NCBI RefSeq assembly: GCF_024502345.1
Contig: NZ_JALDNN010000001.1
Source of the DNA: Escherichia coli
GTDB taxonomy: Bacteria > Pseudomonadota > Gammaproteobacteria > Enterobacterales > Enterobacteriaceae
Length of the DNA: 64,000 bases
Reading direction: 5' to 3' (one strand)
This document shows, piece by piece, positions 5,365 to 56,612 of the stretch. How positions within the stretch are numbered: position 1 is the stretch's first letter; every line of letters begins with the position of its first letter. The notes beneath the pieces are model-generated. The model was not told the DNA's origin. It did not search any database and worked only from the letters and a program-made list of their open reading frames with translations. The position numbers were made by a program, and so were the translations under genes.

Positions 5365-7626
5365 TTACGCCGGAATTTTGTCAATCTTAGGAATGCGTGA
5401 CCACACGCGGTGTGCTGCCATCAGCGTTAACAGTTCATCCATAAAACTACCGTCGGCGCTGTCAGCTTCCACAATCCCTTCTTCACCCTGGTCAGCGACC
5501 TTGATTGTTGCTTTAAACTTGCGCGCGTCTCCCGCCAGCGCAATCGGTTTAAGGTGTTTGTAGGCTTCCATCAGGTAGTAGTTGGCATCGCCGTTGTCAG
5601 CGATATCCGCGATATTGCCGCAAGGGACAATGACCGCATCGACCGTCAGCGAAGGCGCACCGGCAAAGGTAGCGGCTATAGGCAACACCGTACCGTCATC
5701 CGCAGTCACTTCACCCATTCGGGAGTAGAGCAGTTTGGCATGAACGCCTTTGGCCTTCAGGGCCTTAAGAATGGCCAGAAGGTCTGCCGATCTCACTTCA
5801 TCATTAAGTAAAATCGCTACCACGCGACCTTTCACATCACCGTCAGGAATGGCGTACAAACTTAAGGATGGATCCTTTTTCAGACCGTTGACGTCCGGAG
5901 GTGGGGTGATATTCAGCTGGTCGTCAGTCAGTTCGATACCGAGATTTTTCGCCACCGCCTGGGCCAGAGTGAGATCAATATGCGCCAGCTGGTCAACAAC
6001 GCGCTCACGAATATACGGACGAACGACTTTGCTTAACTCAAAACTGAAACCATCGACAATATGACGCTGCTCGAATGGCGTCTGACTTAGCCAGAACAGA
6101 CGCGGATGGGAATAATATTCGCCAAAAGATGGACTGCGCTCGCGAACTTTATTTCCTTCCACGCGTTCCTGATATGATTCAAAACCGCCGCGTTTCGGTC
6201 CCGGCGGTGTTTCGCGCGGCCAGTTATCGTTGATCGAGTTCGGTTCGTAATTCGCCGGGTTAGTGTCGATCCCCATACGATGCATGCCATCACGCTGGAA
6301 GTTGTGGTAAGGGCAGGTCGGACGGTTAATCGGAATCTCATGGAAATTCGGCCCACCAAGACGACTGATTTGTGTATCGGTATAGGAGAACAAACGTCCC
6401 TGCAACAGCGGATCGTTGGTGAAGTCCAGTCCCGGCACGATATGCCCAGGATGGAAAGCCGCCTGTTCGTTTTCAGCAAAGAAGTTATCCGGGTTGCGAT
6501 TGAGCACCATTTTGCCGACACGCTGAACGGGCACCAGTTCTTCCGGGATAAGTTTGGTTGGATCGAGAAGATCGAAGTCGAACTTGAATTCATCTTCTTC
6601 AGGAATCAACTGGAAGCCCAGTTCGTATTCCGGAAAATCGCCTGCTTCAATGGCTTCCCACAACTCGCGGCGGTGGAAGTCCGGGTCACGTCCGGTTAGT
6701 TTTTGTGCTTCATCCCAAACGAGTGAGGCTTTACCTGCCAGTGGTTTCCAGTGGAAACGTACAAACGTTGCCTTCCCTTCGGCATTAATCAGGCGGAAGG
6801 TATGAATACCAAAGCCTTCCATGGTGCGGTAACTGCGGGGGATGCCGCGATCCGACATCGCCCACATCACGTTGTGCAGAGTTTCAGGTTGCAGAGAAAC
6901 ATAATCCCAGAAAGTATCGTGGGCGCTTTGCCCTTGTGGAATTGCCCAGTGTGGTTCTGGTTTTACCGCATGAACAAAATCGGGGAATTTATGCGCATCC
7001 TGGATAAAGAAGATTGGCGTGTTATTGCCAACAAGGTCAAAAATACCCTCTTCGGTATAGAATTTGGTGGCAAAGCCACGGATATCACGCACGGTATCGG
7101 CAGAGCCAGCACCACCCTGAACAGTAGAGAACCTAACAAATACTGGGGTGATTTTGTTCGGATCTGAGAGGAAATCCGCTTTGGTGATATCGCTTAAGCT
7201 TTTATATGGCTGGAAATAACCGTGAGCTGCTGATCCACGTGCATGAACAATACGTTCCGGGATGCGCTCATGGTCAAAGTGGGTGATTTTCTCGCGCAGA
7301 ATAAAATCTTCCAGCAGCGTTGGACCACGGCTACCGGCACGCAGTGAGTTTTGATCGTCGGCGATGCGCACGCCCTGATTAGTGGTCAGCGCATAATTTT
7401 CACTGCCTTTGCGTACGTCTTCCAGAGAATTAAGTTTTTCGTTACGTGTATCAGGGGCTTTCAGGCTCCCAGGGGCGGTAGGTTGTGCACCTGGCGGTGT
7501 TGGTTCAGCCGCTGGACGATGAGATCCGTCCTCAGGTGCCAGTGAGTCCATCCCCGGTTTCGCTTCGCTGGAATCGTGTAGTGGTGACTGGTGCTGATGT
7601 GGGTTCTTTTCGTTATGTTGCGACAT
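5365..7626 (-). CDS. katE: Catalase HPII (large-subunit monofunctional catalase)
   Basis: 753-aa [32 protein letters not shown] with catalase core and C-terminal flavodoxin-like extension. Confidence 0.97.
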
Positions 7627-50491: not shown

Positions 50492-50848
50492 TTAACAAAG
50501 CCGCTCCAGATCGTGTGCATATAATTCAGCGGCTACCGATTGATAGATCTTCCAGTCAATAAAATTGCCATCAGGGTAGACTCGTTGAAATGCGGTTAAG
50601 TCGGGGAAAAAACGCATGGTGTTGTTGCCGATGCGGTTATTTATTTTCTCTATGATGGCATGAAGATGTTTTTTTCTTTGCTGACGCATAGCCAACAGTT
50701 GCTCGACTACACGATCAGGAATGGCACACTTGCCATTTTCCCACTGACGCCAGCTTTCACTGTCACCGGTCTGGGCAATCCAGGTCGCGCATTCATCAAT
50801 AGTCATGGCAAAAATATGGCGGAGTGCCTGGAGTTCATAAGCGTTCAT
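50492..50848 (-). CDS. ydiL: Uncharacterized protein YdiL
   Basis: 118-aa ORF from MNAYELQALRHIFAMTIDE. Confidence 0.8.
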   Translation of the reverse strand: MNAYELQALRHIFAMTIDECATWIAQTGDSESWRQWENGKCAIPDRVVEQLLAMRQQRKKHLHAIIEKINNRIGNNTMRFFPDLTAFQRVYPDGNFIDWKIYQSVAAELYAHDLERLC

Positions 50849-50985
50849 CGTGTAATGGCTGCATGAAATAAACAATAAAATATAAATAACATTATCAGCC
50901 TGCTGACGGCTTGAAGAGAGTCACAGTATCTTGTGCAACATTATTGGAAAGAGTGAGGGGCGAGGTAGCGAAGTGGAAAAATGTT

Positions 50986-51091
50986 AAAAAAAAGCCCATC
51001 GTGGGAGATGGGCAAAGACTACACACAGCAATTCGTTGTTTCACTCAGGGGATTTCCATGCTTATAAATCAATATGTTGATTTATAACCGT
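50986..51091 (-). ncRNA. rprA: Small regulatory RNA RprA (Hfq-dependent activator of rpoS translation)
   Basis: Minus strand reads ACGGTTATAAATCAACATATTGATTTATAAGCATGGAAATCCCCTGAGTGAAACAACGAATTGCTGTGTGTAGTCTTTGCCCATCTCCCACGATGGGC followed by a T-run; between ydiL and ydiK. Confidence 0.9.
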
Positions 51092-51276
51092 GAGCTAATA
51101 GTAGGCATACGGACTTTTTGCGTCGATCAGATTCGTCTCATTAGTTTAAAAACTGTAAATAATTTGCGACAGGTACTACCAGCTGAATGGCGGTAAGCAG
51201 GAAAATATGGGGAAGAGCAAGCAAATATCAATTAGCGGGGGTTAACAATCAGGCGGCAGAGCCGCCTGATGAGAAA

Positions 51277-52389
51277 TTACTTATTCGGTTTCTCGATTTC
51301 GCCCAGTTCTTCGAGAATTTCTTCCGGTTGGTCCGTCGGCGGCGGGACTTCTTCCACCCACGCGGCAAACAGACGCCAGGAAACGGCTAACAGAACCGGA
51401 CCAATAAACAGACCGATCATCCCGAAAGCAATCAAACCACCAATAACACCAGAGAGGATCAGGATCAGCGGTAAATCGGCACCCATGCGAATTAACATTG
51501 GGCGGATGACGTTATCCAGCGTGCCAACCACACCGCTCCACACTAACAATACCGTTCCCCAGGTGGTATCGCCAGTCCAGTAGAGCCAGATAATCGCCGG
51601 AATCAGTACCGGCAACGGGCCAAGCTGGACAAGGCAGGAGAGGATCATTAACACCGTTAGCAACGTTGCATAAGGTACGCCGGATACGGCGAGGCCGATA
51701 CCGCCAAGCACTGCCTGTACTAACGCCGTCACCACCACACCCAGCGCCACCGCGCGGATAGCCTGTGCCGCCAGCAGCACGGCGGCATCTCCGCGAACGC
51801 CTGCCAGACGGGTTGCAAAATGGCGAATGCCTTGTGCCACCTGTTCACCGCGCCAGTACAGCAGGGCACTGAAGAGAAGCATCAGCGCACAATGCACCAT
51901 AAAGCGCCCGATATGCGCCGCTTGCCCAACGAACCAGGTGGTGGTGGTGCCAATATAAGGGCGGACTTTCGCCATGATCGCCGTCCCCCCCATATCCAGC
52001 AAGTTGTGCCAGCCTGCATACAGCTTCGCGCCAATCACCGGAATGGTATTAAGCCACGCCAGATCGGGTAACGTCATGTCACCGCTGGAAATGGCTTTAA
52101 TTAGCGGGCCGCTGCCGTCGACGATACTGTTAACCAGCAAAGCAATAGGGATGATAAACACCATCACTAATAACAGCGTCATCACCAGAACGGCGAGAGA
52201 GCGGCGGCCAAACATGATCTTTTGCAAACGTAACAATACCGGCCAGGTGGCGATAACCACCGTACCGGCCCATGCAAAGCCGAGAATAAAGGGTTGAACA
52301 ATCCACAGACATGCCACAATCATGATGGCTAAAAACAGCACCGAAAGCAGAATTTGTGCGACATCCCTGGGCTGACGAACATTTACCAT
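51277..52389 (-). CDS. ydiK: AI-2E/PerM-family inner membrane transporter
   Basis: 370-aa multi-pass ORF. Confidence 0.9.
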   Translation of the reverse strand: MVNVRQPRDVAQILLSVLFLAIMIVACLWIVQPFILGFAWAGTVVIATWPVLLRLQKIMFGRRSLAVLVMTLLLVMVFIIPIALLVNSIVDGSGPLIKAISSGDMTLPDLAWLNTIPVIGAKLYAGWHNLLDMGGTAIMAKVRPYIGTTTTWFVGQAAHIGRFMVHCALMLLFSALLYWRGEQVAQGIRHFATRLAGVRGDAAVLLAAQAIRAVALGVVVTALVQAVLGGIGLAVSGVPYATLLTVLMILSCLVQLGPLPVLIPAIIWLYWTGDTTWGTVLLVWSGVVGTLDNVIRPMLIRMGADLPLILILSGVIGGLIAFGMIGLFIGPVLLAVSWRLFAAWVEEVPPPTDQPEEILEELGEIEKPNK

Positions 52390-56354: not shown

Positions 56355-56529
56355 TCCTGACTTAATGCCGCAAGTTCGCCAAATCGACCTGGATTAACCT
56401 CCGTCCAGGTTCGATGACCTTCTTAATACTGCTTATCTACCGCCTGATATTGTTCAAAAATAATACTAATCGCAGTTTGTGTTAAAACGGCGGGTTAGCT
56501 TTATGAGATTATTCTTATCGCCCCTTCAA

Positions 56530-56612
56530 GAGCTAAGCCACTGAGAGTGCCGGAGATAAGCGCCGGATGGGGTAGAAACCCTTAAGCCTGTGTCGCACAG
56601 ACTTAAGGGTTT
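56530..56612 (+). ncRNA. rydB: Candidate small RNA with intrinsic terminator (position fits RydB)
   Basis: Hairpin cccttaag-cctgtgtcgcacaga-cttaaggg followed by ttttcttattt, about 200 nt past ydiH stop in the ydiH-sufA spacer; 5' end and strand not verified. Confidence 0.4.

Follow-up and report, generated by a model that had tools for sequence, protein, structure and literature searches.

The 106 nt on the minus strand at positions 50986..51091 of the analysed window, a stretch of 64,000 nucleotides of Escherichia coli DNA, are almost certainly the rprA gene of K-12 type, encoding the small regulatory RNA RprA. This is an already known gene, present here in its usual place and in the same form as the copy of the laboratory strain. 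When the whole window was compared with Rfam at gathering thresholds, the RprA family (RF00034) was matched with 118.5 bits (E = 1.6e-16; the gathering score is 70), and the alignment spans positions 50984-51091 on the minus strand and model positions 1-108, that is, the full model. Moreover, the minus strand of 50986-51091, ACGGTTATAAATCAACATATTGATTTATAAGCATGGAAATCCCCTGAGTGAAACAACGAATTGCTGTGTGTAGTCTTTGCCCATCTCCCACGATGGGCTTTTTTTT, shares 106 of 106 bases with rprA of K-12 MG1655 (b4431, NC_000913.3 1770372-1770477), whose annotated 5' end, taken as the reference, sets the +1 position at the A at 51091. The site carries the annotation rprA in near-identical E. coli genomes. The first-pass annotation of this DNA had claimed an RprA match of about 106 nt on the minus strand and had named an Rfam/Infernal scan and an alignment to K-12 rprA as checks; both bear it out, with a family score far over the threshold, every base identical and coordinates that are exact to the base.

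Chance similarity is excluded, since the 23-nt core of the RNA gave no match at up to three mismatches in 100 shuffles of the window. Among 5426 complete E. coli genomes, the 106-nt rprA is found at 99% identity or more in 5421, and the 701-nt region around it is present in 5424. Over 390 nt around the gene, MG1655 and the window differ by three substitutions, at -148, at -69 and 12 nt beyond the 3' end, none of which falls inside the rprA gene or its core promoter, and these flanking changes probably touch no known element. The window copy agrees with K-12 RprA in its bases and promoter elements, in its terminator, and in its neighbours and their strand arrangement. Because the sequence equals that of the K-12 gene, the experimental literature on RprA applies directly, and with an intact gene all that is known of this RNA carries over to the source strain, which, judging from the sequence, probably expresses it. 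The finding confirms the standard annotation and by itself advances no open question.

The genomic neighbourhood is likewise that of K-12. Upstream lies ydiK (51277..52389, minus), a 370-aa open reading frame ending in ...EEILEELGEIEKPNK and annotated as the AI-2E family transporter YdiK. Downstream lies ydiL (50492..50848, minus), a 118-codon open reading frame starting with MNAYELQ and identified by the K-12 annotation. All three genes are on one strand, as in NC_000913.3, and the proposed position of the RNA between ydiL and ydiK is confirmed, with both neighbours present in the K-12 order. Near-identical genomes also have rprA between these two genes. Among the Enterobacterales loci from other species (L003-L122), 88 of 89 have a YdiK homologue whose end is no more than 600 nt upstream of the core, whereas ydiL is found downstream of rprA in only 8 of 106, which indicates that the linkage of ydiK and rprA is old and that the downstream junction is variable. 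Indeed, the junction directly after the rprA terminator differs among lineages.

The proximity of ydiK, directly upstream and on the same strand, is what could suggest that rprA is merely the 3' untranslated region and terminator of ydiK rather than an independent gene. Such a reading is extremely improbable. The ydiK gene has its own stop codon and a GC hairpin at about 51264..51240, ahead of the rprA promoter; between ydiK and the RNA there is a promoter whose RcsB box is kept in nearly all of the sites compared; and RcsB-dependent transcription from the rprA promoter has been published (PMC3465796, PMC7913699).

To locate the promoter, the K-12 5' end was used together with the spacing and the RcsB box. 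A predicted RcsB site, TGAGACGAATCTGA at 51127..51140 on the minus strand (-49..-36 from the start), fits the pattern TN(G/A)GAN4TC(T/C)NA and abuts a putative -35 hexamer, TCGACG (51121..51126, minus), which agrees with the consensus in four of six positions. The putative -10 hexamer, TACTAT, occupies 51098..51103 on the minus strand (-12..-7), and the spacer between the two hexamers is 17 nt; both were assigned from the spacing, the -10 also with the K-12 5' end. The pattern of the box derives from crystallographic work on RcsB bound to the rprA promoter of Salmonella, for which a 23-mer of PrprA spanning -33 to -53 was crystallised (PMC7913699); the window sequence around the box differs from this 23-mer by one base. 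The box recurs in 117 of the 118 Enterobacterales sites for which 200 nt of upstream sequence were available, whereas the background rate is 0.026 per 200 nt; nearly all of the boxes are positioned about 107 nt upstream of the core 23-mer. The pattern alone is not rare, with three matches in the window versus 2.99 expected, and therefore the weight of the box comes from its position and conservation. A generic sigma-70 scan missed the rprA promoter, its one prediction being a TTGATA/CATATT pair that lies about 110 nt upstream; the miss is explained by the weak -35 hexamer and is what an activator-dependent promoter of this kind would lead one to expect. Taken together, these elements indicate that rprA has its own promoter, with a predicted site for RcsB immediately before the -35 hexamer.

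The RNA is predicted to fold with an energy of -25.8 kcal/mol (z = -2.5 versus shuffles) and to consist of three parts. The first is an A/U-rich 5' stem-loop of RprA nt 3-32 (51060..51089, minus), found in both the minimum-free-energy and the centroid fold. It is followed by a central pairing region, nt 32-72 (51020..51060, minus), which contains CCCCUGA and AACGAAUU and is single-stranded in the centroid fold. The core 23-mer AATTGCTGTGTGTAGTCTTTGCC covers nt 59-81 (51011..51033, minus) and marks the start of the processed 47-nt form. The third part, detected by a terminator scan, is an intrinsic terminator at 50986..51013 on the minus strand, in which the hairpin GCCCATC-TCCCAC-GATGGGC (51013..50994; nt 79-98 of RprA) has seven pairs, five of them G-C, and a loop of 6 nt, and is followed by U8 (50993..50986). 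The terminal GC hairpin and U-run of the first-pass annotation are therefore found as described, as GCCCATCTCCCACGATGGGC at 51013..50994 and then eight T. The predicted structure shows the three-part fold that is characteristic of RprA, namely a 5' stem-loop, an open centre and a terminator with a long U tail, the Hfq-binding 3' module of the family.

Support for the helices comes from an alignment of the window copy with 49 homologues of the Enterobacteriaceae type (n = 50). Standard pairs occupy 98.7% of the alignment cells that belong to the predicted structure, compared with 36-44% when the partners are slid by one to three columns. The 5' helix is 97-100% paired, and A-U is replaced by G-U in 9-10 sequences at two pairs. 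The terminator is 100% paired, with compensatory changes at two pairs, from A-U to U-A at one and from U-A to A-U or C-G at the other. The helix of nt 60-74 is itself part of the pattern used for the search, and its invariance is consequently uninformative.

The core AATTGCTGTGTGTAGTCTTTGCC occurs exactly in at least 120 species-representative Enterobacterales genomes, and among the matches listed the genera are Escherichia, Salmonella, Citrobacter, Enterobacter, Klebsiella, Pantoea, Erwinia, Serratia, Yersinia, Dickeya, Pectobacterium, Hafnia and Providencia. The RprA homologues of other Enterobacterales, such as Salmonella and Erwinia amylovora, have the RcsB box, the 23-nt core, the terminator and the upstream ydiK in common with the window copy. 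The 3' module is near-invariant across genera, whereas the 5' half differs between families and is divergent outside Enterobacteriaceae. In Pantoea, Erwinia, Serratia, Providencia and Dickeya, RprA has other 5' hairpins; the window copy is of the Escherichia type.

The same pattern of conservation bears on the possibility that the segment encodes a small protein, as the mechanical list of open reading frames contains a 49-codon frame with a GTG start (51044..50895, minus) that begins within the RNA. This frame crosses the terminator hairpin and the U-run, and in other genera conservation ends right after the U-run, with unrelated sequence beyond. The core is invariant at every position, with no third-position variation, and the preservation of the helices by G-U and compensatory changes argues for a constraint on RNA rather than on coding. 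The probability that this frame accounts for the segment is negligible, and a structured regulatory RNA is by far the preferred reading.

The function of RprA has been described experimentally. Rcs-induced transcription and anti-antisense activation of rpoS are published for the identical sequence (PMC3465796, PMC4152358). The first-pass annotation had characterised RprA as an Hfq-dependent activator of rpoS translation, which agrees with these reports and is incomplete: the physiological effect on RpoS is weak, as a knockout of rprA hardly alters sigma-S levels, and further targets were omitted, of which csgD and ydaM/dgcM respond at lower levels of RprA (PMC3465796, PMC4152358). Repression of csgD involves RprA nt 28-45 and 60-97, and that of ydaM/dgcM involves nt 45-75 (PMC3465796). 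Another repressed target is hdeD (PMC5861431). The narP gene is repressed through nt 30-70 and also by another route, for which the last 47 nt are sufficient (PMC9262595). These 47 nt are the processed form of RprA, which coexists with the full-length RNA (PMC3465796, PMC9262595). Moreover, RprA is shielded from RNase E and RNase III by Hfq and rpoS mRNA (PMC4152358).

From this literature and the elements identified in the window, the following course of events can be proposed. The Rcs phosphorelay of envelope stress has phosphorylated RcsB as its output; this regulator would activate transcription of rprA, as reported for the identical sequence, and would bind the box at -49..-36 beside the weak -35 hexamer. 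Transcription would proceed from the A at 51091 to the GC hairpin and U8, yielding a predicted RNA of 106 nt, and a cut by RNase E would also give the 47-nt 3' form. RprA would then bind Hfq and act in trans by imperfect base pairing, in line with the literature. The long rpoS leader contains an inhibitory hairpin, to whose upstream arm the central region of RprA would base-pair, and this pairing would free the ribosome-binding site (anti-antisense activation) and protect the mRNA. Overlapping regions of RprA would pair with csgD, ydaM/dgcM, hdeD and narP, leading to their repression. In effect, RprA would couple envelope stress both to the general stress response and to a shut-down of curli and the biofilm matrix. 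The significance of RprA lies in tying Rcs envelope stress to RpoS, to the control of curli and biofilm, to acid resistance and to nitrate-response regulation.

The pairing with rpoS was also assessed by calculation, in which the open region of RprA was set against the K-12 rpoS leader, 45 nt at a time. The most stable duplex joins nt 32-72 of RprA with positions -135..-93 of the leader at -32.4 kcal/mol. This part of the leader is where the published RprA pairing site is expected. Since 6 of 100 shuffles reach the energy of this duplex, it is by itself only consistent with pairing, and it argues modestly for complementarity between the central region and the upstream arm of the rpoS leader hairpin. 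A full-length RNAduplex calculation against the 597-nt rpoS leader returned an unrealistic duplex of 99 nt that was equalled by 61 of 300 shuffles, and it was discarded.

Two other Hfq-dependent sRNAs that activate rpoS, DsrA and ArcZ, also base-pair with the arm of the inhibitory leader hairpin that lies upstream. Their mode of action on the rpoS leader is that of RprA (PMC4152358). Their sequences and loci are unrelated to those of RprA; neither gave a match at the rprA site, to which Rfam assigns RprA only. The inducing signals also differ, being low temperature for DsrA and, for ArcZ, aerobic conditions and stationary phase.

An unusual arrangement of rprA was observed in Phytobacter massiliensis, where NZ_HE578945.1 carries, at about 1410116-1418297, a full rprA and a partial copy 8.07 kb downstream on the same strand (L048 810-924 and L049 1173-1287). 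The partial copy begins at about RprA nt 38 and is the sole one of the 118 sites without an RcsB box. Between the copies there are phage-remnant genes, including a 709-aa tape-measure-like open reading frame and a Ner-like regulator; no integrase was seen between them in this 8-kb island. The segment looks like an island that was inserted or recombined at the 3' end of rprA.

Outside the window, the last approximately 47 nt of RprA, comprising the 22-mer ATTGCTGTGTGTAGTCTTTGCC, the GC hairpin and the U-run, recur without annotation in phages, prophages and phage-plasmids. The phage-borne copies lack the 5' half of RprA, and all but a few of them also lack an RcsB box; the invariance of the 22-mer among them follows from the exact-match search by which they were found. 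Examples include the lytic, N4-like Erwinia phage Ea9-2, in which the module lies between thymidylate synthase and rIIA (L124 1501-1544), and the temperate Escherichia phage vB_EcoM-606R2 (L125 1501-1546). Phage LLS, also temperate and of E. coli, has the module as well (L127 1501-1548), as do the temperate E. coli phages Eeyore and Flotzy. Another carrier is the 89-kb phage-plasmid of E. coli CH468 (L123 6001-6047), and phage-plasmids of about 90 kb from E. coli, Enterobacter, Citrobacter and Pantoea harbour the module too.

An exact search of IMG/VR returned at least 120 contigs (L128-L247), and the chromosomal 5' half was present in none of the matches listed. By a crude clustering, these listed matches comprise 37 upstream contexts and 37 distinct hairpin sequences. 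The terminators of the phage copies vary in sequence and are still paired. A 55-nt query from the RprA 3' end was found at 6039 places in 5424 E. coli records, which corresponds to at most about 615 additional copies; this ceiling may include similarity of the terminator only. The Rfam RprA model gave the phage copies 40.8-63.4 bits, which is below the threshold, and no other family covers them. A literature search found no paper describing RprA-like copies in phages or rprA as an integration site.

One RprA-like element lies in NZ_AP022003.1 of E. coli WP3-W18-ESBL-08 (near 1349016-1348971; L248, about 20152-20197), in a prophage situated beside yfhL, flanked by a repressor-like HTH gene on one side and an early operon (DUF2800, DUF2815 and DNA polymerase) on the other. 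This type of prophage matches 158 complete E. coli genomes. The idea that such an element is a phage attachment site was rejected for NZ_AP022003.1, where it is internal and about 10 kb from the integrase of a prophage located beside yfhL and not at rprA. The attachment-site reading is also implausible for the lytic N4-like phages and for the phage-plasmids; it may apply to the 8-kb island of Phytobacter.

A different and tentative reading, to which we give somewhat less than an even chance on sequence grounds, is that the 3' module at 50986-51033, which corresponds to the processed 47-nt RprA, may be the chromosomal member of a larger, unannotated RprA-3'-like set, and that the phage copies may be expressed as sRNAs mimicking processed RprA, and thereby the envelope-stress sRNA of the host. 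The phage part of this putative set would encompass temperate prophages, lytic N4-like Erwinia phages and phage-plasmids. The phage copies of the RprA 3' module could matter for the use of host sRNA networks by phages.

About 300 nt downstream of the RprA-like element in the phage-plasmid of E. coli CH468, a 'tRNA-Met' of 129 nt is annotated (L123 6353-6481), which is much longer than a normal tRNA. It reaches 27.6 bits with the Rfam tRNA model, versus a threshold of 29, and may be an intron-containing or a mis-called tRNA.

Several other RNAs were identified in the window. The rydB sRNA lies on the plus strand at 56520-56580 (Rfam 81.6 bits, gathering score 50), and a match to the RcsB-box pattern, TGAGATTATTCTTA at 56504-56517, ends 3 nt before its 5' end; this match fits chance, given three matches in the window for 2.99 expected. 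Two known features of the region were recovered as well, both on the plus strand: the Phe_leader at 22188-22312, with 75 bits versus a gathering score of 55, and the enterobacterial sRNA STnc540 at 26152-26310, with 67.4 bits versus a gathering score of 38.
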